From positions 36,475-100,474 of the forward strand of contig JAJDYG010000019.1 of assembly GCA_022822855.1 (NCBI GenBank): a DNA stretch of 64,000 bases. Reading direction: 5' to 3'. Source of the stretch: Dehalococcoidia bacterium. GTDB lineage: Bacteria; Chloroflexota; Dehalococcoidia; Bin125. Both the position numbers and the translations under genes were made by a program. Under the pieces are notes generated by a model. It had not been told where the DNA came from and did not search any database. It saw only the letters and a program-made list of their open reading frames with translations. Positions 7,461 through 46,882 of the stretch are shown piece by piece (within the stretch, counting starts at the first letter, position 1; each line of letters starts with the position of its first letter).

Positions 7461-9509
7461 ATGGCTGGCCGAATCGTTGGGATGATCTCCGTTCTCACGA
7501 TTGTGGGAGTGATCGCCGCTGCTGCGGTGCTGTTGATGCTGGCGCTGGACTCGGAAGAGGACTCCGGCCGCCATTCGGCCAAGGTGCTCGCCGAAGCGGT
7601 CGCAGGGTGGCTTGAGGCGAATCAGCTTGAGGACCTGACTGACGAGCAACTTGAGGCGCTGATTCGCGCCAACACACCGATTGACGATGCCTCGGGCGAC
7701 GAGGAGTCGCAGTTCGGCGACCTGTGGGTCTTCAACACTCAGGCGCGCCTGTCGGCTTCATCGGAAGGCACGCGCCCGATCACGCGTGACGAGATTCTGC
7801 CTGCGCGGCAAGTCATGGAGCCGGACGCGGAGACAGTAATCGAATCGCTCACCGCGGGCCGCTACGCCGGCACGGCGGCCATTCGAGATGTGGACGGCAC
7901 CGTGTTGGGCGCGGTCCGGATCGAGTTCACGACCAGCGAAATCGGCACCCACTTCGAGCTCTACCGCACCGAGTACCTGATTGGCGTCGTGGTCATCCTG
8001 GTGGCGTTGGTGCTGGGCAGTTGGTTCCTCGCCACGCGGCTGGCGCGACCGATTGGCACCATGGTGCGCGCCGCGAGGGCGGTGGAAGCCGGACGCCAGC
8101 CCGAGCCGGGCGTGGCGGCGTCGCTGCGCAACACATCGTTGACGAGAGACGAATACGGCGAACTGGCCGGCGTGTTCCTAGACATGGCGAGGGAGGTCGG
8201 AGCGAGAGAAATCCAGCTCAACGCGCTGGTCGAAGAGCGAACCGTCGAACTGTCGCAGAAGAACCTGGCGCTCGAAGACGCGCAGCGCGAAATCCGCAAC
8301 GACCTCGAGATGGCCCACTCGGTCCAGGCGGCCCTGGTACCCGCCGACCTGCCCGAGGACCCGCGAGCGGGCGTTGCCGCATTCATGACTCCGGCGCTGG
8401 ATGTCGGCGGCGACTTCTACGACGCCTTCCTGACCGACGACGGCCGCCTCGCGTTCGCGATCGCCGACGTCTCCGGCAAGGGCGTGGCCTCGGCGCTGAT
8501 GATGGCCGTCGGCCGTGCGGTCCTGCGCAGCGCTGCCAATCAGCATGCGGATCCGAGCGACGCAATCGCCTCGACCAACGATCAGCTTTGCGGCATGAAT
8601 CCGAAGGAACTGTTCATTACCGCGTTCTTCGGAGTCATCGACCTGGAACTGGGCACCCTGACCTACGTGAACGCGGGACACGATCCTCCCTATCTGATCC
8701 GCCCCAACGAGGGACCGGAGATGATTCCACATACGGGCGGGATCGCACTCGGTGTGTTGCCGGAGCTCAGCTACGCGGAGACCACGATTCCGCTCGATCC
8801 CGGCACTGCGCTCTATCTCTACACGGACGGGATCACCGAGGCCGAGAATGCCAGCGGGCAGCAGTTCGGCCGCGAACGGCTGGAACAGAAGCTGGCCGAG
8901 ATGAACGGCGCCGGACCGCAGGGATTGATGGACGACATCCTGTTCGACCTCCGTGAGTTCACCGGCGACGCCAAGCAGTTCGACGACATCACCTGCATGG
9001 CCGTGCAGTTCGTCGGCGGAGCGTCGCCGGAGCAGTACATCCCGGGCCGAGGCGACGCACATCTCGCGTCAGGTTGGCGGCGAATGGTCGTCCAGCCGAC
9101 CCTGGAGACGTCGCTGCCGAGAGTTGCGGCGTTCGTAGAGCGATTCGCCGAGTCGCAAGGCTTCTCCGCCATGGAGGTGTACCGGATCAACCTGGCCCTG
9201 GACGAGCTGCTGACGAACACTGTTGAGCACGGCTTCCCGGGGCGTGAACAGGAAGCGGATATCTCCGTCGCGATTCGCAGCGAGGGCGACAGCGTGATCG
9301 TGCGCTACGAAGACAACGGCCCTGAGTTCAATCCACTCGAGGCGACCGAGCAGGACACTGAGTTAGAGTTGGAAGAGCGACCGATCGGAGGATTGGGATT
9401 GCAGCTAATCGCTTCGACCTTCGACGACGTCAGCTACGAGCGGGCGAACGAACGCAATGTCACCACATTGCGACAGAGTCGTAAGACGCCGACTGAGGAG
9501 CCAGATTAG
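7461..9509 (+). CDS. Membrane-anchored PP2C (SpoIIE/RsbU-type) phosphatase with HAMP region, fused to a C-terminal RsbW-like HATPase_c anti-sigma kinase domain
   Basis: Two TM segments and a PP2C region (AFAIADVSGKGVASALMMA ... YLYTDGITEAENASGQQFG). C-terminal LALDELLTNTVEHGF ... GGLGLQLIASTFDDV is a GHKL ATPase motif set. Confidence 0.65.
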   Translation: MAGRIVGMISVLTIVGVIAAAAVLLMLALDSEEDSGRHSAKVLAEAVAGWLEANQLEDLTDEQLEALIRANTPIDDASGDEESQFGDLWVFNTQARLSASSEGTRPITRDEILPARQVMEPDAETVIESLTAGRYAGTAAIRDVDGTVLGAVRIEFTTSEIGTHFELYRTEYLIGVVVILVALVLGSWFLATRLARPIGTMVRAARAVEAGRQPEPGVAASLRNTSLTRDEYGELAGVFLDMAREVGAREIQLNALVEERTVELSQKNLALEDAQREIRNDLEMAHSVQAALVPADLPEDPRAGVAAFMTPALDVGGDFYDAFLTDDGRLAFAIADVSGKGVASALMMAVGRAVLRSAANQHADPSDAIASTNDQLCGMNPKELFITAFFGVIDLELGTLTYVNAGHDPPYLIRPNEGPEMIPHTGGIALGVLPELSYAETTIPLDPGTALYLYTDGITEAENASGQQFGRERLEQKLAEMNGAGPQGLMDDILFDLREFTGDAKQFDDITCMAVQFVGGASPEQYIPGRGDAHLASGWRRMVVQPTLETSLPRVAAFVERFAESQGFSAMEVYRINLALDELLTNTVEHGFPGREQEADISVAIRSEGDSVIVRYEDNGPEFNPLEATEQDTELELEERPIGGLGLQLIASTFDDVSYERANERNVTTLRQSRKTPTEEPD

Positions 9510-33671: not shown

Positions 33672-34110
33672 CCCTCCCCAGTCCCCGCTTCATGCGGAGC
33701 CTGCCCCCGACTTGTTCGGGGAACCCGTTCCCTCCGAGTCCGGCGCGGGCGACCACAAGGGTCGCCCCTACAAGGCTTCGATTCTGGATCACTGAAGACC
33801 TTCCCCTCCCGTCCGATGCCCCGTGCTTGACACGGGGCCCAGAGCAACCGACTCCGCCAGAGCGACTACGTCCCGCCTCACCTCGGACGCCGCGACCCAT
33901 GATCCCAGTCCCCGCTTCATGCGGGGACCCGCTCCCTCCCCCTCCCCCCTTCCCCCGTCCGATGCCCCGTGCTTGACACGGGGCCCAGACCTCCCAACTT
34001 CGCCAGGCCGACCAACGCCAGCCTCACCTCAACCGCCGAAACCCCTCCCTCCCCAGTCCCCGCTTCATGCGGAGCCTGCCCCCGACTTGATCGGGGGGAC
34101 CCGCTCCCGT
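33672..34110. repeat. Composite array of short palindromic repeat elements (families C and D) in a long non-coding stretch
   Basis: cagtccccgcttcatgcgg(ag/gg) occurs 3 times and cccccgacttgWtcgggg 2 times. An ~85-bp unit ccgatgccccgtgcttgacacggggcccaga...cctcacctc is duplicated in direct orientation at ~33812 and ~33958. Confidence 0.6.
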
Positions 34111-34211
34111 CCCTCTCCCTCCGCAAACCCCAACACACTCACACCTGCCCACGCAGAACACCAGTACATATACCATCAACCTCCAACACACGTTCACAGA
34201 TAGGACCGGCC

Positions 34212-34544
34212 ATGAGCACCCCGCAATACACCCCGCAAGCCATCCAGGACCGCTACTGGACAATCGCCAACGACCCCAACGAACGCGGCTACTCCCAGGT
34301 CCGGGCGCTCGACTCCCTCTGTCGGCTCCTCGACCTCTTCCCGCGAGGTCAGCAGCCCGCCCCGGATCCACCCCAACCCGAACAGATCGATCCCAACCTC
34401 CTCATCGCCGGCATGACCGACGCACAGATCGACGCCCTGATCGCCAGAGAACAAGCCGAAGCGGAAGCCAAGGCCAAGGCGGAAGCCGAGCGGACCGAGG
34501 AGGACGACGAAGCGTCCAGCGAGGAAGAGGATGATCCGCTCTAA
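34212..34544 (+). CDS. Hypothetical small protein with acidic/Ala-Glu-Lys-rich C-terminus
   Basis: 110-aa ORF with ATG at 34212. N-terminal half is protein-like (YWTIANDPNERGYSQVRALDSLCRLLDLFP). C-terminal EAEAKAKAEAERTEEDDEASSEEEDD. Confidence 0.3.
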   Translation: MSTPQYTPQAIQDRYWTIANDPNERGYSQVRALDSLCRLLDLFPRGQQPAPDPPQPEQIDPNLLIAGMTDAQIDALIAREQAEAEAKAKAEAERTEEDDEASSEEEDDPL

Positions 34545-34856: not shown

Positions 34857-35687
34857 CTAGAGGGGGCGGCCGCTGTCGAGCATCAGGGCTCGGGCGGCGA
34901 TCTGGGCTGCCAGGACTGCTGCGGTGGTCAGGTAGAGGAGACCGGTAGCGGCCATCATCGAGCGCATCCTCGCCGTCGTCCAGGCCATCCAGCCGAAGAC
35001 CAGCGGGAGGATGAATCCGATCACGATGCGCAGCCAGAAGGTCGGATCGCCGGTCAGCGACTGGTCGCGTCCGCCGACCGGATCCTCGATCGACACGGCC
35101 AGGGCGACGCCGAAGAGGATGGCCTGGACCAGCACCACGATCAGGAATGCGGTCGTGATCTCCACCAGCGGCCGCGCGGGGAGCCGGGGCGTAACCAGGT
35201 ACCAGTGTCCGAGCGCCAGCCCGACGGCCGACAGCCCAAGCGCCAGCGCCCCGAAGGCGAGGCTAAAGACGGTCAGCGCTTCGGGCGAGCCGGCCAGCGT
35301 CGCCGCCGTCAGACCAAGCGCGGCCAGCGAGAGCCCGCTCAACAGCCATCCGATCCGCCGCGCCCAGGCGTCGCGGTCGGTGTACAGCGCGACGTTGTGC
35401 AAGACCGAGGCGGCCGTCAGCGCGGCCAGCGTCCAGACCAGCGCCTCGCGCGGTCCCGAACGCACGGCGAAGCCCTCGACCACGTCGCCATCGAGCGTGA
35501 ACGCCGTCCAGAATGCCAGGCCGAGGACGATCGGCACCATGATCGTCGTGGCGCGCACGAATCCCGGCGTGGCCTGTCCGCGCAGGTGGACGGCGTGCAT
35601 GACCAGCGCGCCGCCGACGCCCAGCTCGATCAGCAGGAGCAACAGCGTGTACGGCAGGGCTCCCGAGGCCGACACCGCGTCGTTCAC
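34857..35687 (-). CDS. Polytopic integral membrane protein, hypothetical
   Basis: About eight hydrophobic helices; no recognisable family motif. Confidence 0.4.
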   Translation of the reverse strand: MNDAVSASGALPYTLLLLLIELGVGGALVMHAVHLRGQATPGFVRATTIMVPIVLGLAFWTAFTLDGDVVEGFAVRSGPREALVWTLAALTAASVLHNVALYTDRDAWARRIGWLLSGLSLAALGLTAATLAGSPEALTVFSLAFGALALGLSAVGLALGHWYLVTPRLPARPLVEITTAFLIVVLVQAILFGVALAVSIEDPVGGRDQSLTGDPTFWLRIVIGFILPLVFGWMAWTTARMRSMMAATGLLYLTTAAVLAAQIAARALMLDSGRPL

Positions 35688-35693
35688 CGCCGT

Positions 35694-35906
35694 CTACGAG
35701 CCCAGCTTGAGCAGCAACACTTCGCGACGCAGCCCCTCGTCGCCGATCTCGACCTGCACGCTGAGCACGCGGAAGCGATCGTCGCGGCCGCCGCGGCGGA
35801 ATCGCAGAATGTCGCCCTTGCTCCAGGGATAGTCGGTCTCGAGCGTGTCGAGCAGCGCCTCGCGCCGCTCGGTGAACGTGTCCGACTCCCAGAACTCCGT
35901 CAGCAT
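35694..35906 (-). CDS. Small hypothetical protein upstream of the membrane protein
   Basis: 70-aa ORF (MLTEFWESDTFTERREALLDTLETDYPWSKGDILRFRRGG...) ending 6 nt before the membrane protein start. Confidence 0.3.
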   Translation of the reverse strand: MLTEFWESDTFTERREALLDTLETDYPWSKGDILRFRRGGRDDRFRVLSVQVEIGDEGLRREVLLLKLGS

Positions 35907-35996
35907 CGCAACCCTCCCGCGACAGACGTACCGACATATCGTATCCCACCAACAGGCCGCAGCCTGACCACCGACTCGCAGGTCCCATGTGTCAGA

Positions 35997-36449
35997 ATGG
36001 CGGGCATGAGCGACACCGAGACGTCCCGACGCTGGTTGATGAAGGCGCTGCGCGAAGCGTCGGGCGAGATGCACGAGCTGATGATGCGCGCGCTGCGCAG
36101 CTCGATGCCCGAGGCCGAGGCATTGATCGAGCGCGCCTGGCGTCACGAGACGATCGCCGCCTGGCAACTCGGACATCTGCTCTTCCAGAACGTCGACGAC
36201 TTGCCCCTGCACGACTACGAGTGGCTCGAACAGGCCAGCACGCCCGACTGCTACGAACAGCTCCGCGAGTGGTATCACACGAGGGAGCAGATCTCAGGCG
36301 TGCTCTATATGATCTCCAGCTACGAGTGGGAACAGACCGCGAGCCACCGCTTCCGGGGAGAGCTCGACGTGGAGTCGATCGCACGCTCGCTGCATCGCAC
36401 GGACCTGGAGATCCTCAACACGCTTCGGGCTCAGTTGCAGCCGACGTAG
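35997..36449 (+). CDS. Hypothetical protein, possibly DinB/YfiT-like four-helix bundle
   Basis: ATG at 35997 within a longer ORF whose upstream part is antisense to the membrane protein. WQLGHLLFQNVDD ... LREWYHTREQ; His/Trp pattern only weakly DinB-like. Confidence 0.3.
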   Translation: MAGMSDTETSRRWLMKALREASGEMHELMMRALRSSMPEAEALIERAWRHETIAAWQLGHLLFQNVDDLPLHDYEWLEQASTPDCYEQLREWYHTREQISGVLYMISSYEWEQTASHRFRGELDVESIARSLHRTDLEILNTLRAQLQPT

Positions 36450-37517: not shown

Positions 37518-37901
37518 TTAGATGCAGGAGCGGGCCTGGGAGGCACCGCCGCCAGCGGCGGTGTCGAAGCTCGAGCCGCAGGCGCAGGAGTGCGAGGCGT
37601 TCGGGTTCGAGATCGAGAAGCCCTGCTTCATCACATCGTCGATGTAGTCGACGCGCGAGCCGGCGATTAGCGGGGCCGATTCCTCGTCGACGAGGAAGCG
37701 GACGCCGTTCTTCTCGACGATCTGGTCGCCGGTTTCGGCGTCCATCGCGAGGGCCATGCCGTACTGGTAGCCGGAGCAGCCGCCGCCGACCACGAAGACG
37801 CGCAGCGCGCCCTCGGCGAAGCCCTTGTCCTCAAGCAGCGACTTGGCTTTCTCCGCCGCGAGGTCCGAAACGTCCAGCATCTCAGTCATCTGAAAGACCA
37901 T
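37518..37901 (-). CDS. Iron-sulfur cluster insertion/assembly protein (IscA/SufA/ErpA HesB family)
   Basis: RVFVVGGGCSGYQYGMALAMD and C-terminal CACGSSF are the three conserved Cys of A-type carriers. Confidence 0.65.
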   Translation of the reverse strand: MVFQMTEMLDVSDLAAEKAKSLLEDKGFAEGALRVFVVGGGCSGYQYGMALAMDAETGDQIVEKNGVRFLVDEESAPLIAGSRVDYIDDVMKQGFSISNPNASHSCACGSSFDTAAGGGASQARSCI

Positions 37902-38019
37902 GAAGCAGTCCTCTCAACAGGATGAGTTCACATACGAGCATAACCGACGTCTATGCCGCCCCGCCAGTGCCGGCCGCAGCGCGGCCAACGACGGCAGGCT
38001 ACTCCGTTACTCTGACCTC

Positions 38020-39183
38020 ATGGAACGTGCGTATTTTGACCACGCGGCGACGACTCCTCTGGACCCTCGGGTGTTGGAGGCGATGGCGCCGGCATTGCAG
38101 CATGGATGGGGGAATCCCTCGGGGATTTACCGCGAGGCCCAGTACGCGGCAGGGCTGTTGGACCAGGCTCGGGATGATATTGCGGGGGTGCTGGAATGCT
38201 CTCCTTCAGAGGTCGTGCTGACCTCGGGCGGCACGGAGTCCGACAACCTGGCGATTCGCGGAGCGGCGCTGGCCCGTCAGCACGCGGGTCGGCACTTGAT
38301 CACCCAGGCCACCGAGCATCATGCGGTGCTGCACACGATGGAGCAGCTCGAGCATGAGGGCTTCGAGTTGACAGTGCTGGGCGTCGACGCGGACGGGTTT
38401 GTCGATCCGGACGAGGTTGCCTCGGCGGTTCGCGAGGACACGACGGTCGTCAGCATCATGCTGGCCAACAACGAGATTGGGGCTGTGCAACCGCTGGCCG
38501 AGATCTCGCGGGCGGTGAAGGAGCGCAATCGGCGCGCGATTGTGCATACCGACGCCGTGCAGGCGGCGGGCGCGGTCGATATCCGTCCCGACGTGCTGGG
38601 CGTGGACCTGGTCTCGCTGACGGCTCACAAGATCTACGGACCGAAGGGCGCAGGCGCGCTCTATGTGCGGCGCCGGACGCCGCTGCAGCCGTTGCAGCTC
38701 GGCGGCGGTCAGGAAGAAGAGCGCCGGGCGGGCACGGAATCGGTGGCCCAGGCGGTGGGTCTGGCGACGGCGCTGACCCTGGCGGAAGAGGAGCGTGCGG
38801 CGCGGACGGACCACGCGTCGGAGCTGCGCAATCGGCTCTGGCGAGAGCTGAACGAGCGCGTCCATCCAATCAGGCTGAACGGACCGTCCGACTGGTCGCG
38901 GCGGCTGGCGAACAACCTGAATGTGAGTTTCCCCGGCGTCGAGGGCGAGAGCATCCTCCTGCAGCTTGATCTGGAGGGATTCGCCGCCTCCTCCGGCAGC
39001 GCCTGCAGCACGGGCAGCACCGAGCCGAGTCACGTGCTCAGCGCGATTGGTCTGGATCCCGACACCGCCCACGGCACCCTGCGTCTCAGTCTGGGCCAGT
39101 CGAACACCGAGGAACAGATCGACAGTATTGCCCGGTCGATCGAGCAGATCACGGCACGGCTACGGGCGCTGTCGCCTGTATAG
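38020..39183 (+). CDS. Cysteine desulfurase (IscS/NifS class V aminotransferase)
   Basis: YFDHAATTP ... VLTSGGTESDNLAIRG ... SLTAHKIYGPKGAGALYV (PLP-Lys) ... SSGSACSTGSTEPSHVL (active-site Cys loop). Confidence 0.7.
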   Translation: MERAYFDHAATTPLDPRVLEAMAPALQHGWGNPSGIYREAQYAAGLLDQARDDIAGVLECSPSEVVLTSGGTESDNLAIRGAALARQHAGRHLITQATEHHAVLHTMEQLEHEGFELTVLGVDADGFVDPDEVASAVREDTTVVSIMLANNEIGAVQPLAEISRAVKERNRRAIVHTDAVQAAGAVDIRPDVLGVDLVSLTAHKIYGPKGAGALYVRRRTPLQPLQLGGGQEEERRAGTESVAQAVGLATALTLAEEERAARTDHASELRNRLWRELNERVHPIRLNGPSDWSRRLANNLNVSFPGVEGESILLQLDLEGFAASSGSACSTGSTEPSHVLSAIGLDPDTAHGTLRLSLGQSNTEEQIDSIARSIEQITARLRALSPV

Positions 39184-39208
39184 GGTGAGTCGAGTCAGGA
39201 GCAGCCCA

Positions 39209-39883
39209 ATGGTCACTGCGGAGCCCAGGCCGTCAGCATCACTCACGGGAACGACGCAGCCCAGGCCGCCTGTCCGTGGTGTCTTTCCGGTCCGATTGAC
39301 GCTGCCCTCCGACTGGGAGCTGACCGATGACGTACTCAGCGAAATGGGATCACTCAATGAACTGTGGCGATTCGAAGTCGACAAGTCCGGTTGTCTGCTG
39401 ATCATGTCGCCATCGTTCCCACTCAGCGGGATACGCGCCGGACGGATTCTCTCTCAGCTCGTTGTCTGGTCGGACGAGCACAATTCAGGTATCGTCGCCG
39501 ATTCCAGCTCGATGTTCCGATTGCCGAACGACGAGGTCAGGGTGCCTGACACAGCATGGATAAGCGATGAACGGTTGCAATCGGTATCTGAAGACCTGGA
39601 AGGAGCCTGGCACATCTGCCCGGATTTCGTCGTCGAAGTCCGTTCAGGATCTGACCAACTCGCAGATCTGCAGATCAAGATGGAGATGTGGGTGTCGCAG
39701 GGGGCGCGATTGGCGTGGCTCGTCGATCCGTACGAGGACGCGCTCTGGATCTACCGACCGGAGCAAGAGCCGGAGCGTCTGCAGCGGCCCGACAGAGTGA
39801 CAGCGACCGAGATCGCCGACGATCTGGTGATCGACTTCACCCGCATCTGGCCGGATCGGAAGGCTCGCGATGGTCACGGCTGA
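39209..39883 (+). CDS. Uma2 family (DUF820) PD-(D/E)xK endonuclease-like protein, copy 1
   Basis: LELTD..L.E..SLNE.W..E.D ... CPDFVVEVRS ... MEMWVSQGARLAWLVDP is the DUF820 pattern. Confidence 0.55.
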   Translation: MVTAEPRPSASLTGTTQPRPPVRGVFPVRLTLPSDWELTDDVLSEMGSLNELWRFEVDKSGCLLIMSPSFPLSGIRAGRILSQLVVWSDEHNSGIVADSSSMFRLPNDEVRVPDTAWISDERLQSVSEDLEGAWHICPDFVVEVRSGSDQLADLQIKMEMWVSQGARLAWLVDPYEDALWIYRPEQEPERLQRPDRVTATEIADDLVIDFTRIWPDRKARDGHG

Positions 39884-40550
39884 GCGATCTGAGGCAGCGG
39901 GCCTCGCGGCCACGGTCGCGTCAAGGGGAGCCTGGGAGACTGCGCCGCGGGCGTTTCCACTGCGCCTGCAATTGCCGCGCGACTGGGAGCTGACGGACGA
40001 GCGACTCCTGGAGTTGGGGTCGCTAAATGAAGAGTGGTACCTCGAGGCCGACTGCGAGGGAGGACTGTTCATGGCGCCGCCACCAGGACCGCTGAGCGGC
40101 AAGCGGGAGTTGCGGATCGGCTCGCAGATTCTCAACTGGAGTGACGCCGCCAAGAGAGGGGACGCATTTCCTTCGGCCACATTTCGGCTGGCAAATGGTT
40201 GGCGGCGCGCACCAGACGCGGCCTGGGTCAGCGATGAACGTCTCTCAGGGATCGCCGCCGACGATGAGGGGGTCTGGGCAGTTTGTCCCGACTTCATAGT
40301 GGAAGTGCGTTCAGCGAACGATCAACTGGGTCTCTTGCGAGAGAAGATGGAGATGTGGGTGTCGCAGGGGGCGCGATTGGCGTGGCTCGTCGATCCGTAC
40401 GAGGACGCGCTCTGGATCTACCGACCGGAGCAAGAGCCGGAGCGTCTGCAGCGGCCCGACAGCGTGACAGCGACCGAGATCGCCGACGATCTGGTGATCG
40501 ACTTCACCCGCATCTGGCCGGATCGGAAGGCTCGCGATGGTCACGGCTGA
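39870..40550 (+). CDS. Uma2 family (DUF820) endonuclease-like protein, copy 2
   Basis: Same family. Its 3' ~190 bp are identical to copy 1, and it overlaps copy 1 by the 14-nt ATGGTCACGGCTGA junction. Confidence 0.55.
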   Translation: MVTAERSEAAGLAATVASRGAWETAPRAFPLRLQLPRDWELTDERLLELGSLNEEWYLEADCEGGLFMAPPPGPLSGKRELRIGSQILNWSDAAKRGDAFPSATFRLANGWRRAPDAAWVSDERLSGIAADDEGVWAVCPDFIVEVRSANDQLGLLREKMEMWVSQGARLAWLVDPYEDALWIYRPEQEPERLQRPDSVTATEIADDLVIDFTRIWPDRKARDGHG

Positions 40551-41220
40551 GCGATCTGAGGCAGCGGTCCCCGCGGCGACGGTCGCTGCAAAGGAAGCCT
40601 GGGAAGTTACGCCGGAGGCGTTTCCGTTGCGCCTGCAGTTGCCATCCGACTGGGAGTTGACGGATGAGTGCTTCCTCGAACTGGGCCGCCTCAACGAGGG
40701 CTGGCGGATTGAAGCGGACGGCGAAGGAGGCCTGCTGATCATGGCGCCAACCGGTCCGATGAGCAGTGCCCGGGGAAGCAGCGCCCTGGCTCAAATCTGG
40801 GTCTGGAGCGACGCACACGAGTCGGGAATGGTCTTCGATTCGAGCGCCACCTTCCTGCTGGCCAACGGTGATCGCCGGATGCCCGATGCAGCCTGGATTA
40901 GCGACGAACGGCTGGCGGAGATTGCCGACGACGATGACATCATCTGGCGAATCTGCCCCGATTTCGTCGTCGAGGTGCGATCACAGTCCGACCGGCTGGC
41001 GCCTCAACAGGTGAAGATGGAGTTGTGGATCTCGCAGGGCGCCCGGCTTGCATGGCTTGTCGATCCGTTGGAGGAAACGGTCTGGATTTACCGACCGGGG
41101 CAAGAGCCGGAGCAGGTCGAGCGGCCCGAGAGCGTGACGGCGACGGAGATTGCGGATGATCTGGTGATCGACTTCACTCGGATCTGGCCGCAGCGGGATC
41201 AAGGGTCAGAGACCAGCTGA
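40537..41220 (+). CDS. Uma2 family (DUF820) endonuclease-like protein, copy 3
   Basis: Same family but more diverged. The junction with copy 2 is identical to the copy 1/copy 2 junction. Confidence 0.55.
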   Translation: MVTAERSEAAVPAATVAAKEAWEVTPEAFPLRLQLPSDWELTDECFLELGRLNEGWRIEADGEGGLLIMAPTGPMSSARGSSALAQIWVWSDAHESGMVFDSSATFLLANGDRRMPDAAWISDERLAEIADDDDIIWRICPDFVVEVRSQSDRLAPQQVKMELWISQGARLAWLVDPLEETVWIYRPGQEPEQVERPESVTATEIADDLVIDFTRIWPQRDQGSETS

Positions 41221-42319
41221 CATCAGTACCGAGGAATCGGGCGATCTCGGCGAACTCCGATTCCAGTTGAGACCGCGCGTCGTCCGAGAACGGTTCGAAG
41301 CAAGTGACGCTCACGGCCAGTCCCCGCGCTCGACGCTTGCGTTCCCAGGTGCCGACGAGCCGGCCGTCGATGATCACGCATGAACGGATCATCCCGCCGC
41401 CGGCGTTGATTCGTTTGAGCAGCGGCTCTTCAACGCCGAGTTGTCGTTTGGCGTAGCCGAGCAGATACGGATCGAACGGGCCCAGCACTCGCACGACCTC
41501 CGCCGGGTCCGAGAGGACCTCATCGATGCGGGCCGCCGAGTCCGGGGTCATCCACATCTCCGCGCCGTCAACGCTGACTCCGTTGAGCTCGTCGGCGAGC
41601 GCGGTGAATCCGCGCCGAGCGTCCGCCGCGGGCAAGCCCGTCCACCAGCGGAAGTCGGCGGCGGTCGCGGGTCCGTAGGCCGAGAAGTAGCGGCGCGCGA
41701 GCTCTGCCCACGGATCGGCCGGCGGCTCGTCGTCGGGCAGCCAATCGTCGATCAGGATGTGAGTCTCATCGTCGTCTTGATCGGGCCCGAAACAGATCAC
41801 TCCAAGCATCGACGCGGTTCGCAAGAGATGCCGCGGCGCTTGACTTTCTGCGGGGAGTCCGGCTGCGGCGAGCACGTCGGTGACTTCGGTCCGCTTCAGG
41901 GTTCCTCGGCGAGTGAGATCGGCTCGGAAGAAGTCGAGGACTCTGGCGTGGTCCTCGGGGCTGATGCCCAGATCGGCGCGGCGCTTGAGCGCCTTGGCAT
42001 CCATCGCCTGGCCGAGCAGGCCGAGCATCCAGCGGAAGTCTTCGGCGGGAACCAGATGCAGGGTGCCTCGCATGAGCCAGCTACGCACGACGGTTCGCTC
42101 GACGTTGCGGGCCCGCTCCACGTCCTCGGCGGTCAGTCCGACCGAACGAGTTCCCACTCCCAGCAACCAACCGAGGCGGTCCTGCGCCTGGATCGCGCCA
42201 GCCTGTCGCACGGCTCCGGCGACATCGGCCGCGCGCGCCGCGCCGAGCCCCTGCGCGTGCGTTCGCAGGCGTCGGGCCTCGGACCAGTTGAGCGAGACGG
42301 GATTGCGACCTGCCGGCAT
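41174..42319 (-). CDS. Winged-helix DNA-binding domain protein of the AlkZ/YcaQ (HTH_42) DNA glycosylase-like family
   Basis: Length and motifs WLMRGTLHLVPAEDFRWM ... FDPYLLGY ... fit the HTH_42/DUF1006 pattern. Confidence 0.5.
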   Translation of the reverse strand: MPAGRNPVSLNWSEARRLRTHAQGLGAARAADVAGAVRQAGAIQAQDRLGWLLGVGTRSVGLTAEDVERARNVERTVVRSWLMRGTLHLVPAEDFRWMLGLLGQAMDAKALKRRADLGISPEDHARVLDFFRADLTRRGTLKRTEVTDVLAAAGLPAESQAPRHLLRTASMLGVICFGPDQDDDETHILIDDWLPDDEPPADPWAELARRYFSAYGPATAADFRWWTGLPAADARRGFTALADELNGVSVDGAEMWMTPDSAARIDEVLSDPAEVVRVLGPFDPYLLGYAKRQLGVEEPLLKRINAGGGMIRSCVIIDGRLVGTWERKRRARGLAVSVTCFEPFSDDARSQLESEFAEIARFLGTDVSWSLTLDPAAARSE

Positions 42320-43182: not shown

Positions 43183-43473
43183 GCGGGTGTCAATTTCTGC
43201 TAGTTTTTCCTAGTTTCGACCAAGTATTTTCGCCTCGTTATGTTCGGGATTCTTGCGGATTTCCTGTGCTTTGCTGGGTTTCGTGATCGGGGTTCGGGTT
43301 TCAGGCGGGAAATTTTTTCCGCCGGCCGCCGACGCAGCGAAGCCGGGGGGTCCGGAGCTAGTCGCTCTCCTGTTCTTGGTTCATGATAGCGGGTTGTTGG
43401 AGGGTTTGTTGGACGCCCTGTTGACGCCGAGGTATATCCTGTCATTGTGGCGAACCGCTGAGGGAGCGTGAAC

Positions 43474-43644
43474 ATGACGACTCAGGAAGAATCGAGACCG
43501 GCAACGCTCTCGGAGTTGTTCCTGGTTCGAGATCAACTCAACAGCCGGATCGATGACCTCCAGAAAGTGATGTTCTGGGGATTCGGGCTGTTGGCGGCGC
43601 TGCTCATCGCATTGCTTGGTGTGGTCCTGAGCGGAGCAGGCTGA
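43474..43644 (+). CDS. Small (56 aa) single-pass membrane protein with N-terminal helical segment; paralog of 47734-47982
   Basis: ORF below the 60-aa track cut-off: ...LNSRIDDLQKVMFWGFGLLAALLIALLGVVLSGAG. Shares N.RIDDL...W-G...LLxALLG with the 82-aa protein. Confidence 0.3.
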   Translation: MTTQEESRPATLSELFLVRDQLNSRIDDLQKVMFWGFGLLAALLIALLGVVLSGAG

Positions 43645-43650
43645 CCAACC

Positions 43651-45279
43651 TCACCCCTCCAACTTCGGCTGTACGCCTTCCCGACGGCGGCGGCGCGGGG
43701 CCTTGCGGAAGGTCTGGGGGGCGGCGAAGCGGGGGTAGTCGGGCTGGGCGCCGTCGAGGAGCTGCTCGATGGTCAGGATCTGGACCTTCGGATAGCGGTT
43801 GCCGGGCAGACTCTCCGGCTCGTAGAAGCCCGCGCCGATCGCTTCCTGGCGCATGGGCTCGGTCGGCTCTTCGAGCGTGATGAAGATGCCGACGGCGGCT
43901 TCCTCGCGATCCATGTCGCCTTTCAGCGTGGCGATCATCCCGCGGTTCACGTGGCCGCTCTTGACCTGGACGATGATCCGCCTGGCCTTGCCCGAGTTGT
44001 CGTCGAAGAAGTTGATGTAGCCGTCGATGCCGGAGTCGGCGCCCTTCTTGCCCGTCGCGGGGCGGGCGTCGACGAGGCCGAGGGCCCAGTACTCGAACTG
44101 GTAGCGGCCGTCGTGCTCCGACTCCGTCGCCAGCGCCCGAGCGCTGGCGACGTCCTGGGGCAGACCGATCACTGAGTACTCGGACAACTCTGAGCCGAAC
44201 GTGTCGTGGAGGCGGTGTTTCATCAGCGACACGGCAAGATGCGTGATGTCTATGCCGATCCAGCGCCTCTTCAGGCGCTCGGCGACAGCGACCGCGGTAC
44301 CGCATCCGCAGAACGGATCGAGAATGACATCGCCTTCGTTGCTGCAGGCACTAATGATGCGCTCAAGTAGCGCTTCAGGCTTCTGGGTCGGATATCCGAG
44401 ACGCTCTTGGTGCCAGGAGCGTAAAGCTTCAATGTCGGTCCAATTGTCCTGAACGGCCAGACCTCGCGCCTCGTCCAGATACCGCTTGATACGAGGTATG
44501 CCGTTCCGCGTGTAGAAGATTCTTCCCTCGGCGTCCAGGCGAGCCATCGTTGACTCGGGAACGCGCCACAATCTGGTTACGCCCTTCCATTCATATGTAT
44601 AGCCACCTCCTTGCAGTCCACCAGCCCCCAGGTCTCCGGACATGAAGCGCCGGCCATCATCATCCGTGTATCGATAGTACTGTTCAACGTATTGAGGATC
44701 GTAGTCTTGGTACTCTTGATTCCAGAGGTAATCGCTTGAGTTCGAAAAGAACATCAGAACATCGTGGACCGAACCGTATCTCCTTGCATCGCTGTGAGCG
44801 CTTGTCCTCTTCCAGATGATCTCGTTGCGGTAGTTGTCATGTCCGAACACCGCGTCCAACAGCAGCTTGATGTAGTGGCTGGCCGTCGGGTCGCAGTGGA
44901 GGTAGATGCTCCCCGTGGGCTTGAGCACTCGGCGGAGTTCGGCCAGCCGCTGGGCCATCATCGTCAGGTAGGCCATCATGTCGTTCTGGCCCAGGAAGGC
45001 TCGCATCGCCTGGAGCAGGCTTGCGAGCCGCTCCGGACCCTGCGTCACCACCTCGCGGTAGGCGGCCTCCGAGCCAAGGTCCCAGTGCCAGGTGTCGTCG
45101 AAGGCCGTGATCTGCGCGGCCGAGTCCTCGCCCGTCTTCTCCTCGAAGAGGACGTTGTAGGTGGCGTTGGAATTGAAGGGCGGGTCGAGGTAGATCAGGT
45201 CGACGGACTCGTCGGGGATGTGTTCGCGGAGGACGCTGAGGTTGTCGCCGAAGTAGAGCTGGTTGGTCCAGGTGGTCAT
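43651..45279 (-). CDS. N4/N6 DNA methyltransferase (beta class) fused to C-terminal Mrr-like restriction endonuclease domain
   Basis: DPPF motif (DLIYLDPPFNSNATY), SAM motif TQKPEALLERIISACSNEGDVILDPFCGCGTAV, and a C-terminal GADSGIDGYI ... RIIVQVKSG (D..QxK nuclease-like core). Confidence 0.65.
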   Translation of the reverse strand: MTTWTNQLYFGDNLSVLREHIPDESVDLIYLDPPFNSNATYNVLFEEKTGEDSAAQITAFDDTWHWDLGSEAAYREVVTQGPERLASLLQAMRAFLGQNDMMAYLTMMAQRLAELRRVLKPTGSIYLHCDPTASHYIKLLLDAVFGHDNYRNEIIWKRTSAHSDARRYGSVHDVLMFFSNSSDYLWNQEYQDYDPQYVEQYYRYTDDDGRRFMSGDLGAGGLQGGGYTYEWKGVTRLWRVPESTMARLDAEGRIFYTRNGIPRIKRYLDEARGLAVQDNWTDIEALRSWHQERLGYPTQKPEALLERIISACSNEGDVILDPFCGCGTAVAVAERLKRRWIGIDITHLAVSLMKHRLHDTFGSELSEYSVIGLPQDVASARALATESEHDGRYQFEYWALGLVDARPATGKKGADSGIDGYINFFDDNSGKARRIIVQVKSGHVNRGMIATLKGDMDREEAAVGIFITLEEPTEPMRQEAIGAGFYEPESLPGNRYPKVQILTIEQLLDGAQPDYPRFAAPQTFRKAPRRRRREGVQPKLEG

Positions 45280-45432: not shown

Positions 45433-46386
45433 TCACAGCGACTCACGTAAGGCGTACCAGTTATATCTCCCCGCGTCCAGGGGCTGAGCAGTGACCTGCA
45501 CCATATCGTTCAGCAAGAGTCCAACAAAGATCGACCAGGGCTCACTAGATTCGAAATCTACTATGTGTCCTTGCGGCTCCGGTGTGAGTTCTATTCTAAC
45601 CAAGGAATGTTCCGGCATCTTGCTGTCTTTGGTTTCGTTAGCACTAACCAGTATGTTCTTCTTGCCTGCGCTATGATTGAGCGCGACCGCCAGATCTATA
45701 CGATCGCGGTGCCCCAGCCCATGCTGACGTACTAAGTGTTCATAGCTCAGCCGCAGGCTGAGAAAATCCGTAGCGTCGAAGGCTATCACAAAGAAAATCG
45801 ATTCCCAGTAGCGGCCGGCGCCAAGCGCTTCGCCAAAGGGCTTTGCGGTGGCGATGGGATGATAGGGATGCGGATCACGGTACGCAACGCGCGACAGTGA
45901 CTTGTAGCTCTCGCACTTGTCAAAGCAGTCTCGAAGCTGGCTCGCATGCAGCCTTGTCTTCACTTCTCCACATGCGTAGGTAGCCTCAACCGGGAATACT
46001 TCAGCTCCATCAGGCCCAGCCGCTGCCCGAATCCTTGGGCAGTTGAAGCGATCATAGAGAATGATGTCCATTTGCTTGGAAGTGCTTCCATAGGAATCTA
46101 CTACGAAGCCATGTGAGATACCGACCTTCTCAGGAGGCACGCTGCTGAGAGCTTCACGGATTCGGGATTCGATACTCTGACCAATCTCTCCCGGACTCGG
46201 AAGCTTGCGATCACCCTCAATGTCAGCGATCAAGCGCGTTTGCATGTCGTAAAGGGACTCTGCGAGTTGGCCACGCGTTGGTGCGGGTGCATTCCCGCCA
46301 TCGTTGGGAGCCCGCGTCGGTCGGGGATTTACGATTGGTAGGCTGCGTTCTTTCTGTCGCCTGCGATTCTCTTTCGACATTGCCAT
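45433..46386 (-). CDS. Uncharacterised PD-(D/E)xK nuclease-like protein (candidate restriction/defence endonuclease)
   Basis: GFVVDSYGSTSKQMDIILYD ... AEVFPVEATYACGEVKT gives a D-x(n)-E-x-K arrangement. It sits directly upstream of and co-oriented with the MTase gene, in an AT-richer segment. Confidence 0.35.
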   Translation of the reverse strand: MAMSKENRRRQKERSLPIVNPRPTRAPNDGGNAPAPTRGQLAESLYDMQTRLIADIEGDRKLPSPGEIGQSIESRIREALSSVPPEKVGISHGFVVDSYGSTSKQMDIILYDRFNCPRIRAAAGPDGAEVFPVEATYACGEVKTRLHASQLRDCFDKCESYKSLSRVAYRDPHPYHPIATAKPFGEALGAGRYWESIFFVIAFDATDFLSLRLSYEHLVRQHGLGHRDRIDLAVALNHSAGKKNILVSANETKDSKMPEHSLVRIELTPEPQGHIVDFESSEPWSIFVGLLLNDMVQVTAQPLDAGRYNWYALRESL

Positions 46387-46882
46387 CCTACTCACGATTC
46401 TCAGGACACCTTGACCACGCCCCATTGTCGTCAAGCAGGTTCCGCCAATCAAGGAATTGGCTGCAATCCACGCAGTGGCGCACCGGCCTAGGCGATGACA
46501 GGTGCGATATCCCCAATGGTGGTTTTGCGCCGCGCGATGTTGAAATCGTAGCCGCGCTGCAGGTTGAGCCTAAACGCCGGCGTCGTGTCCAGCGGCTGAA
46601 GTGCGGTCCCGATAGTGCGCTGTAAACTGAGTGGACAGCGATCAGGAAGAGATGCGCGATGCCGGACGAAGAGAGGGGCTTGACCGTCGGGCAGGCGGTG
46701 CGCGGCGACGGGCCGCCGATGGACCCGGAAGAGGCCCGCAAGCTCCGCGAGCGCGTCTCCGGGAGCTGGGAGAAGTACTTCCGCGAGTACCCGGCACTCG
46801 AGGAAGCCTACGGGCAGCACCGACGCCCCAGCTTCGAAAGCGGCTAGCCAATCACGGTATTCATCGACGGAGTGTTCAGGCC

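Follow-up and report, generated by a model that had tools for sequence, protein, structure and literature searches.

Does a head-to-tail array of three Uma2 genes with identical junctions in a Dehalococcoidia genome represent a recent triplication, as an earlier note on this DNA proposed, or an older set of genes, and what might its products do in the cell? Uma2/COG4636 is a large family of predicted nucleases, expanded in the Cyanobacteria, Thermus and Chloroflexota. The locus was analysed in a 64-kb stretch of the Dehalococcoidia bacterium assembly GCA_022822855.1 (contig JAJDYG010000019.1, positions 36,475–100,474 of the forward strand), referred to below as the window, whose coordinates are used throughout. 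The best explanation, considered likely when taken as a whole, is a chromosomal cassette of an uncultured Dehalococcoidia bacterium that encodes three Uma2/COG4636 paralogs. As described earlier, the genes are uninterrupted plus-strand open reading frames: copy 1 (39209–39883, 224 aa, N-core type O), copy 2 (39870–40550, 226 aa, type Y1) and copy 3 (40537–41220, 227 aa, type R). All three products match the Pfam family Uma2, PF05685 (E-values of 1.6e-29, 5.5e-28 and 2.7e-29 and scores of 103, 98 and 102.3 bits, respectively, against a cut-off of 27), while no NCBIfam model matches them; the 64-kb window contains no Uma2 genes beyond these three.

The conserved left neighbour of the Uma2 slot is a NifS/IscS-type cysteine desulfurase gene (37900–39183, plus strand; Pfam Aminotran_5, E 7e-74), whose best NCBIfam matches are NifS and IscS, each of them under its cut-off. 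Its stop codon lies 25 nt from copy 1, a terminator scan found no terminator-like site in between, and the same adjacency is present in the related species L001–L029, making the desulfurase gene a probable operon partner of the array. Shine-Dalgarno-like motifs were read from the sequence 8 nt 5' of the copy 1 start codon (AGGAG, 39197–39201, plus strand) and, within the 3' end of copy 1, 6 nt 5' of the copy 2 start (GGAAGG, 39858–39863, plus strand), the latter recurring ahead of copy 3 at 40525–40530. Judged by spacing, gene overlap and absent consensus terminators, the three Uma2 genes are probably co-transcribed with the desulfurase gene and translationally coupled; the promoter and terminator scan of the array itself, which looks for signals of the sigma-70 type and may be unsuited to this phylum, returned nothing useful. 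The conserved right neighbour, identified by Pfam (AlkZ-like, E 1.7e-69) and synteny, is an AlkZ-like DNA glycosylase gene on the minus strand (41174–42319), whose 3' end overlaps that of copy 3 by 47 nt and which, being convergent, is not co-transcribed with the array.

The structural prototype of Uma2/COG4636/DUF820 is TT1808 of Thermus thermophilus HB8 (PDB 1wdj), which a profile built from the three copies matches with an E-value of 1e-24; the PD, EVR and K motifs align to the PD, E116-x-R118 and K130 of TT1808, for which the residue roles and the PD-EXX-K variant with the lysine relocated to the adjacent helix have been described (PMC551604). The predicted catalytic residues are E56, D114, E143, R145 and K157 in copy 1, E59, D116, E145, R147 and K159 in copy 2, and E59, D117, E146, R148 and K160 in copy 3, so that the TT1808-type S-PD-EXR-K site, with the lysine moved to the following helix, is kept in all of them. 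Among 89 homologs, E59, E145, S148 and K159 (copy 2 numbering) are invariant, and D116 and R147 are conserved in at least 90%. An AlphaFold model of copy 2 (pLDDT 90.3) retrieved 1wdj_A in Foldseek with an E-value of 1.3e-18, a TM-score of 0.92, an rmsd of 1.7 A and 32% identity, and the matches that followed (3ot2, 6okh and 9y1l) are all of the Uma2 type. In contrast to TT1808, the window proteins are extended at the N terminus by about 40 residues, consisting of a conserved MVTAE and a variable low-confidence leader (pLDDT 50–64, predicted to be disordered). TT1808 belongs to a family expanded to many paralogs per genome (PMC1274311) and is itself without an assigned function, and the comparison therefore informs on fold and active site only. 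Four crystal structures of Uma2/COG4636 proteins exist, but no assigned function was found for the family; the literature search also found no experimental or biochemical study of any Uma2 protein. Judged by sequence and model, each product is a predicted metal-dependent nuclease with a PD-(D/E)xK fold of the TT1808 type. Each gene is composed of a short variable leader after the conserved MVTAE, an N-terminal core with the acidic catalytic residues and a C-terminal module starting from the catalytic lysine, and the cores probably differ in substrate preference.

Both gene boundaries consist, as previously noted, of the same 14-nt overlap, ATGGTCACGGCTGA, which is found exactly twice in the window: at junction 1 (39870–39883, plus strand) and, by sequence comparison, at junction 2 (40537–40550, plus strand). 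Each overlap contains the start of the next gene and the out-of-frame TGA of the previous one; at junction 1 the copy 2 ATG (at 39870) sits 11 nt ahead of the copy 1 stop codon (TGA, 39881–39883), the frame of copy 2 being +1 relative to that of copy 1. The tail of copy 1, DRKARDGHG, arises by read-through of the junction, while copy 3 retains the ancestral tail ...RIWPQRDQGSETS of the single-copy orthologs, which likewise terminate in ...RIWPQ.D..SETS. The 16 nt of the junction (GATCGGAAGGCTCGCG) are absent both upstream of copy 1 and in the tail of copy 3, and a similar junction, made up of ATCTGGCCG, a Shine-Dalgarno-like spacer and ATGGCTGA, occurs in the two-copy arrays of L002, L006 and L016. 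The junction is probably the scar of an older duplication, the unit of which would reach from about 16 nt 5' of the start codon to just past the RIWP codons; with this end point, the upstream frame crosses the ribosome-binding site and ATG of the next gene up to the out-of-frame TGA.

Copies 1 and 2 share a near-identical tract of 224 nt with a single mismatch (39677–39900 against 40344–40567, both on the plus strand), whose first codon is that of the predicted catalytic lysine and which ends 17 nt beyond the stop codon, within the next gene. The first instance takes in the final 65 sense codons of copy 1, from K157 to G221, together with the junction and codons 1–10 of copy 2 (nt 39870–39900); the second takes in the final 66 sense codons of copy 2, from K159 to G224, together with the junction and codons 1–10 of copy 3 (nt 40537–40567). 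Since the tract spans the junction, the two junctions are exactly alike. The segments 39690–39883 and 40357–40550, which had been reported as identical, thus proved to be near-identical parts of a longer tract, differing at one position (39796 A against 40463 C, Arg against Ser) that separates exact runs of 119 and 104 nt. The following 76 nt (39901–39976 against 40568–40643) are about 79% identical. Upstream of the tract, 20-codon windows put the identity between the 5' parts of copies 1 and 2, which had been said to differ, at 46–65%, rising thereafter to 98–100%; the identity profile shows a step from 60–73% to 100%, and in the AlphaFold model of copy 2 the tract begins within the helix 153–165. 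When the columns of the copy 1/copy 2 alignment were shuffled 20,000 times, the longest exact run reached 39 nt, against the 119 nt observed, and under the 18% divergence shown by copy 3 in the same part the binomial probability of no more than a single mismatch across 224 nt is about 2e-18. In the C-terminal part, copies 1 and 2 differ by no synonymous and one non-synonymous change, while pS against copy 3 is 0.40; in the sister strain L081 the two tracts are 100% identical.

The trees of the N-core and the C-part (neighbour-joining, 60–130 residues, with support from 1000 bootstrapped distance comparisons) are in conflict, as they also are in the L002 group and in L019, where in the C-part the array neighbours are closer to each other than to the same-type genes elsewhere in 938–984 of 1000 bootstraps. 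The tract thus combines sharp edges and synonymous identity (against a pS of about 0.7 in the core) with a tree that conflicts with that of the rest of the gene. Homologous exchange, either gene conversion or unequal crossing-over, is at work on the 3' part: recent gene conversion or an equivalent exchange probably rendered the 224 nt of copies 1 and 2 near-identical, the conserved 3' module and the junction providing the homology for recombination. There is a weak indication that the C-part of copy 3 may also have been homogenised with those of copies 1 and 2, as its dS is 0.57 to these and 0.95 to L001, values that come from only about 40 synonymous sites.

The N-terminal cores have a different history. 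In codons 29–157 the three copies are saturated at synonymous sites (pS 0.67–0.76), with a dN of 0.32–0.44 and a dN/dS of about 0.2 or less (0.08–0.21 where it could be estimated; pairwise Nei-Gojobori), and with such saturation the age of the cores is 'ancient' in a qualitative sense. The core of copy 3 is far nearer to the single-copy gene of another species, L001 (dN 0.06), than to its array neighbours, and that of copy 2 is nearer to the genes of L019, L023 and L002 (dN 0.14–0.16); same-type genes of other species were closer than the array neighbours in 982–1000 of 1000 bootstraps. Type O of copy 1 has no close relative among the species-level genomes, L025 being no closer to it than copy 3; copy 1 might instead be a faster-evolving copy, a less likely reading given its dN/dS of 0.21 against copy 3. 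O, Y1 and R most likely represent old, separately conserved core types; several such types exist in the clade, and each species retains one or two of them in the slot. The array thus joins paralog types of long standing to a recently homogenised 3' module, which makes the term 'triplication' misleading.

About 29 Dehalococcoidia species (L001–L029) share the slot in synteny, with the order cysteine desulfurase, Uma2 and convergent AlkZ-like gene, except that the AlkZ-like gene is not beside Uma2 in L027–L029. The survey of related genomes suggested earlier revealed one, two or three Uma2 genes per slot: one in most of the about 29 species, two in five of them, and three in close relatives of the window. 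A scan of metagenome contigs gave no match to the 26-nt junction string, so that this survey draws on genome contigs and on those located via protein look-ups; exact-protein look-ups returned records in other assemblies for copy 3 and none for copies 1 and 2. Three distant tandem pairs (L041, L042 and L044) were left out owing to unreliable ORF extraction. In L081, whose DNA is 97.7% identical, the same 2012-nt array is present with 21 substitutions and both junctions are identical to those of the window. L086 has a Y2-Y1-R array, that is, a different first gene in the same junction structure: its junction 2 matches that of the window exactly, and its junction 1 departs from it at two of the 16 spacer bases (GAGCGGAAGGCTCGCG) with the 14-nt overlap kept. 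L083–L085 have a single Uma2 gene, the nearest relative of copy 1 (95% amino acid identity), whose sequence is that of copy 1 as far as approximately nt 110 of the C-part and that of copy 3 from approximately nt 117 through the ancestral tail and the downstream DNA. A relative with fewer copies thus carries a chimeric gene with its breakpoint inside the shared module, the expected deletion product of an unequal crossover, whose direction, from three copies, is suggested by parsimony. Unequal crossing-over in the shared 3' module most likely alters the copy number, and the first cassette is swappable, as in L086.

The core types are distributed patchily across the flanking-gene tree, and sister species in this tree carry different types. 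It is possible, although we favour it less, that this patchiness results from lateral exchange by homologous recombination, with the flanks, the junction and the 3' module acting as arms, rather than from differential loss from an ancestral multi-copy array. Such exchange would agree with the close relatives differing in the first cassette alone (O against Y2), the Y1 and R cores being 96–99% identical between them, and with array DNA that is more alike between lineages than its flanks (for the window and L083, 97% identity in the O core against 86–94% in the flanks); horizontal transfer has also been reported for the Uma2 family (PMC551604, PMC3424549). However, differential loss by unequal crossing-over, as documented in L083, yields patchiness without lateral transfer, the surroundings of the slot showed no mobile-element genes, and no donor with an identical cassette was found.

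Paralogous Uma2 cassettes have already been described, and the pattern at the locus is ordinary for this gene family and does not constitute a new kind of system. The Uma2/COG4636 family proliferates within genomes (PMC551604, PMC1274311, PMC9403480), and the paralogous COG4636 cassettes of cyanobacteria (Feder and Bujnicki 2005, PMC551604; Makarova et al. 2009, PMC2701414) likewise consist of head-to-tail Uma2 paralogs without a recognisable antitoxin or methylase partner, with a copy number that varies between strains (PMC9403480). In contrast to these, the present array occupies one syntenic, housekeeping-flanked slot across the whole Dehalococcoidia clade, and its old cores, homogenised 3' module and deletion chimera are documented here at the nucleotide level; no description of such a module structure for Uma2 cassettes was found in the literature searched. 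The locus is therefore of interest as a clean natural example of cassette evolution, with old core types, a recombining 3' module, a three-to-one deletion chimera and a swapped first cassette. Concerted evolution of tandem paralogs by gene conversion and unequal crossing-over is a general phenomenon, with which the array shares a sharply bounded tract identical at synonymous sites, a tree conflict and a copy-number change with a chimera at the breakpoint. Homogenisation is here limited to the last third of the gene and the junction, so that the copies stay functionally distinct in their cores; three co-located paralogs with one C-terminal module and different cores can be compared for substrate preference and mixed complexes.

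The cyanobacterial cassettes have been proposed to be selfish elements or 'solo toxins' (PMC551604, PMC2701414). By analogy with this proposal for the family, a defence-like or selfish 'solo' nuclease might be the cellular role here too, a reading on which our rough judgement is evenly balanced; DNA repair or recombination, on the one hand, and some other role, on the other, are each regarded as rather unlikely. A type II toxin-antitoxin module found no support, as no small partner ORF lies between or beside the genes and all three copies keep the predicted catalytic residues. No cognate DNA-modification gene was recognised next to the array, the neighbours being the NifS/IscS-type desulfurase and a Tam-like small-molecule methyltransferase. 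Uma2 nucleases have been reported near solitary dndBCDE clusters (PMC6435447), but a phosphorothioate link through the cysteine desulfurase was discarded: there are no dnd genes in the Pfam-scanned neighbourhood (about 28–49 kb of the window), and the desulfurase fits best as NifS/IscS beside an Fe-S scaffold gene. The C-terminal two-thirds of the Uma2 copies gave weak matches, without a curated threshold, to the profile of PDC-S03 (E 8e-10 to 2e-5), a PADLOC phage-defence candidate family, which indicates that this family is Uma2-like; PDC-S03 is an unvalidated candidate, for which no mention was found in the literature searched, and the context of the array is not that of a defence island, a methylase-Mrr fusion apart. 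This DNA methylase-Mrr fusion is encoded 2.4 kb from the array on the other strand.

A more specific form of the repair reading, in which the Uma2 proteins are housekeeping DNA repair or recombination nucleases tied to the AlkZ-like crosslink glycosylase or the desulfurase and not defence-like or selfish, likewise appears unlikely. It would explain why the slot has been kept in about 29 species amid housekeeping genes (MTHFR, Fe-S scaffold, NifS-type desulfurase, AlkZ-like and Tam-like methyltransferase) and why all copies are under purifying selection, and the family is remotely similar to Holliday-junction resolvases (PMC551604). Against it, copy number and core type vary among close relatives, which is unusual for a housekeeping enzyme, AlkZ is convergent and is missing beside the Uma2 gene in L027–L029, weak matches to the PDC-S03 candidate family were obtained, the Pfam-scanned neighbourhood (about 28–49 kb of the window) yielded no dnd genes, and the best assignment of the desulfurase is NifS/IscS rather than DndA. 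Still less probable, and put forward as a conjecture, is that the core types are specificity modules of a self/non-self or target-discriminating nuclease system, maintained as a long-lived cross-species polymorphism under balancing selection and exchanged between strains as cassettes, with the C-terminal module acting both as a recombination handle and as a shared oligomerisation surface. If this were true, co-expressed paralogs could form mixed complexes with combined specificities, and the slot would be a defence-type variation hotspot hidden in a housekeeping operon.

Returning to the origin of the array, it is very improbable that the genes were recently triplicated in tandem by unequal crossing-over and that their N-terminal halves then diversified rapidly under positive selection on a constant C-terminal core. 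The identical junctions and the tract shared by copies 1 and 2 would fit it, as would the first approximately 100 nt of copies 2 and 3, which are 77–88% identical, and a pN of 0.16 against a pS of 0.13 in their leader codons 1–28; these values, however, come from only 10 and 3 changes, and the predicted disorder of the leader fits neutral drift. A simple recent unequal crossover, with copy 2 as a recent hybrid of a copy 3 5' part and a copy 1 3' part, predicts near-identity between the 5' parts of copies 2 and 3, but past the first approximately 100 nt the two are 43–68% identical, and their cores show synonymous saturation, on which grounds this model was rejected. This saturation and the closer relatives of the copy 2 and copy 3 cores outside the array speak equally against a triplication. 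Of the earlier proposal, recent unequal crossing-over or gene conversion accordingly holds for the 3' part, given the absence of synonymous differences and the L083–L085 chimera, and fails as the source of the N-terminal diversity. The suggestion that the diversification was selected found no support either: pairwise dN/dS in the N-core is 0.08–0.21 where it could be estimated, and the changes in the copy 2 core between two strains of one species are mostly synonymous (8 against 4 non-synonymous, dN/dS 0.16).

Least credible of all is an assembly artefact, in which co-existing strains contributed alleles of a single-copy gene that were wrongly joined across the 3' part common to them: the assembly does derive from an uncultured organism, single-copy relatives exist, and L082, a public contig of the same population, breaks at position 40347 at the edge of the repeat, but L081 and L086, independent assemblies from other samples, both have the three-gene array with its junction structure, the gene order in L081 being that of the window. 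Reads across the junction must exist because its 16 nt are absent from both the DNA preceding copy 1 and the tail of copy 3, and copy 2, with a junction on either side, implies a minimum of three genes in any genome that carries it. The 3' part of the first gene of L086 is of another kind, which leaves only a short repeat and makes the order of the genes there unambiguous, and the succession of gene, junction, Y1, junction and R is still present.

Three uninterrupted reading frames of 224, 226 and 227 aa were present head-to-tail on the forward strand (copy 1, 39209-39883; copy 2, 39870-40550; copy 3, 40537-41220), as the earlier note had it, each scoring 98-103 bits with the Pfam Uma2 model (PF05685; cut-off 27) and showing the order GC3 > GC1 > GC2, like the neighbouring genes. 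The start codons were confirmed by the orthologs, which begin with MVTAE: this pentapeptide opens nearly all of them with synonymously varied codons (39209-39223, 39870-39884 and 40537-40551 in the window; around position 8001 in the related loci L001-L029). The 14-nt overlap claimed for each boundary was also recovered: its sequence, ATGGTCACGGCTGA, has only two occurrences in the window (39870 and 40537). The ends of copies 1 and 2, described previously as identical over some 190 bp, proved to be nearly identical over a longer tract: 39677-39900 and 40344-40567 (224 nt, offset 667 nt) differ by a single mismatch (39796 A vs 40463 C, Arg vs Ser), with exact runs of 119 and 104 nt. The tract crosses the junction and reaches 17 nt into the next gene, and identity over the following 76 nt is about 79%. 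Such similarity is far above chance: the longest exact run in 20,000 column shuffles was 39, and P was about 2e-18 at 18% divergence, which is that of copy 3 in the same part. At its 3' end, copy 3 overlaps the convergent AlkZ-like gene (41174-42319, reverse strand) by 47 nt (41174-41220), and nearly all related genomes have a similar overlap.

While these sequence features of the array are real, a recent and selected diversification of the N-terminal parts is unsupported. Pairwise Nei-Gojobori estimates for codons 29-157 (the N-core) gave, for all three pairs, a saturated pS of 0.67-0.76, dN of 0.32-0.44 and dN/dS of about 0.2 or less; therefore, the N-terminal diversity was not made by recent exchange, but is old and under purifying selection, contrary to the suggestion in the earlier note that it looked selected. 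The part of that proposal which stands is the exchange at the 3' end. In the C-part, starting from the predicted catalytic lysine codon, copies 1 and 2 differ by no synonymous and one non-synonymous change, while either of them differs from copy 3 with pS 0.40. Between the core of copy 2 and its counterpart in a close relative (contig L081) there were 8 synonymous changes and 4 non-synonymous ones. A model of one recent unequal crossover was rejected, since it predicts near-identical 5' parts of copies 2 and 3, which were not observed. Tandem Uma2 cassettes and strain-to-strain variation of their copy number are already known; the locus adds a documented case of module-level recombination within a Uma2 array.

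When a single genome was scanned for each species, synteny was found to be shared by about 29 Dehalococcoidia genomes (L001-L029), in the order MTHFR (-), Fe-S scaffold (-), cysteine desulfurase (+; 37900-39183 in the window), Uma2 (+), AlkZ-like (-) and Tam-like methyltransferase (+); a second, distant Uma2 gene often comes next. Most of them have one Uma2 gene in this slot, five have two (L002, L006, L014, L016, L019), and three were found only in the window lineage. The single-copy genes end with ...RIWPQ.D..SETS, as does copy 3. The slot Uma2 gene of L026 (8001-8671) is split by a frameshift and the AlkZ-like gene of L024 (8632-8956) is fragmented; either could be a pseudogene or a sequencing error. 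The N-core and C-part trees conflict, and the cores form deep types (O, Y1, Y2, R, Q and Z) scattered on the tree of flanking genes. Copy 3 (R) is nearest to L001 (dN 0.06) and copy 2 (Y1) to genes in L019, L023 and L002 (dN 0.14-0.16); no close relative of copy 1 (O) was found among the species representatives. Of 1000 bootstraps, 982-1000 placed genes of the same type in other species nearer than array neighbours for the core, while for the C-part 938-984 placed the array neighbours of L002 and L019 nearer each other. With small counts, pS was 0.18 in the C-part vs 0.30 in the core of L014, and about 0.48 vs 0.65-0.71 in L016 and L019. Two tandem MVTAE-type genes at a different locus (L037:8001-9342) gave 0.24 vs 0.66. 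These values, small in counts, suggest that homogenisation of the 3' module is recurrent across arrays, including the other locus.

The window belongs to an uncultured Dehalococcoidia (Chloroflexota) lineage. An assembly artefact is very unlikely: L081, an independent assembly from another sample (97.7% identity over 9 kb), carries the same 2012-nt array with 21 substitutions; a third contig (L082) ends at window position 40347, the repeat edge, as expected of short-read assemblers, which typically break at repeats; three genes with the same junction structure are present in contig L086, in unambiguous order because the first has a different 3' part; and the junction includes 16 nt that are absent both from the sequence before copy 1 and from the copy 3 tail. 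The two tracts of L081 are 100% identical to each other. The core of copy 2 (39884-40343) holds 14 of the 21 substitutions (about 3%), copy 1 five and copy 3 one, and this uneven divergence along 2 kb may reflect recombination between strains.

The junction ATGGTCACGGCTGA combines the ATG of one gene with the out-of-frame TGA of the preceding gene 11 nt later, the upstream frame running from the conserved RIWP codons through a 16-nt spacer and the next ATG to this TGA. In the simplest reading it would be a duplication scar, with a unit starting some 16 nt before the start codon and ending just past RIWP. A similar junction, made up of ATCTGGCCG, an SD-like spacer and ATGGCTGA, is seen in L002, L006 and L016, whose arrays have two copies. 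The exact repetition of the junction in the window is explained by its location inside the 224-nt tract; since the first gene of L086 combines a distinct C-part with the same junction tail, the junction predates the homogenisation of copies 1 and 2. SD-like motifs are present in the spacer (GGAAGG, 39858-39863 and 40525-40530) and before copy 1 (AGGAG, 39197-39201), the gap between the desulfurase gene and copy 1 is 25 nt, and a scan for consensus signals gave no terminator in the array; translational coupling of the genes and co-transcription with the desulfurase gene are both plausible.

Copy number among close relatives, which the earlier note had proposed to survey, does vary: three genes in L081 and L086, one in contigs L083-L085. 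The sole slot gene of the latter, which match the window at 86-94% identity in their flanks, encodes a protein 95% identical to copy 1. Over roughly 110 nt past the lysine codon its C-part is that of copies 1 and 2, with one difference; from about nt 117 on it is that of copy 3, as are the ancestral tail and the DNA downstream. By parsimony as to direction, this gene would be the expected product of one unequal crossover between copies 1 and 3, located within the module they share, with loss of two genes. The L086 array is Y2-Y1-R, with genes 2 and 3 being 96-99% identical to copies 2 and 3, and one lineage or the other has therefore had its first cassette replaced.

A profile built from all three copies matched TT1808 (PDB 1wdj), the Thermus thermophilus prototype, at E 1e-24, aligning their PD, E-V-R and K with its PD, E116-x-R118 and K130. 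The copies share its S-PD-EXR-K form of the PD-(D/E)xK site, in which the lysine is relocated to the next helix (Feder and Bujnicki, PMC551604). The predicted catalytic residues are E56, D114, E143, R145 and K157 in copy 1, E59, D116, E145, R147 and K159 in copy 2, and E59, D117, E146, R148 and K160 in copy 3; the E, E, S and K positions were invariant across 89 homologs. The AlphaFold model of copy 2 (pLDDT 90.3; residues 1-28 of low confidence) superimposed on 1wdj_A (TM-score 0.92, rmsd 1.7 A), other strong matches being uncharacterised structural-genomics Uma2 proteins. Unlike the orthologs here, TT1808 lacks the variable, low-confidence leader of about 25 residues following MVTAE. Since all copies keep the site, all three are predicted to be active nucleases, and no degenerate partner was seen among them. 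The tract opens with the predicted catalytic lysine codon (39677, 40344), within helix 153-165 of the model, and goes on to encode what is left of this helix, then the final strand of the core and the C-terminal hairpins, while the differences between copies fall in the N-terminal two-thirds bearing the acidic residues.

A literature search found no biochemical study of the Uma2 family. A defence-like or selfish nuclease has about an even chance of being the right description: the family has been termed a selfish element (PMC551604) and a likely 'solo toxin' found mostly in cassettes of paralogs (PMC2701414), type and copy number differ among close relatives, the PADLOC candidate PDC-S03 gives weak matches, and a gene pair at a distance of 2.4 kb comprises a methylase-Mrr fusion and a DUF6602 gene. 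A housekeeping role would fit the maintenance of the slot across the clade, the purifying selection on every copy and the neighbouring genes of Fe-S metabolism and DNA repair. A phosphorothioate link via the desulfurase, considered in view of PMC6435447, found no support in the Pfam-scanned neighbourhood (about 28-49 kb of the window) or in the desulfurase family matches. ORFs 33969-34544 (+) and 35205-36449 (+) had no Pfam match and a coding-like composition. The N6/N4 DNA methylase fused to a Mrr_cat/NA-iREase1 nuclease-like domain (43651-45279, -) and the next gene, DUF6602 (45433-46452, -), form a restriction-modification-like islet; most other species of the clade have the second Uma2 gene (43-48% identical) after the Tam-like methyltransferase in its place. 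About 250 nt of the window (43417-43668), missing from L081, L082 and L083, replace the last 16 or so codons of the fusion gene and include a 58-aa ORF (43468-43644, +) with a hydrophobic C-terminus.
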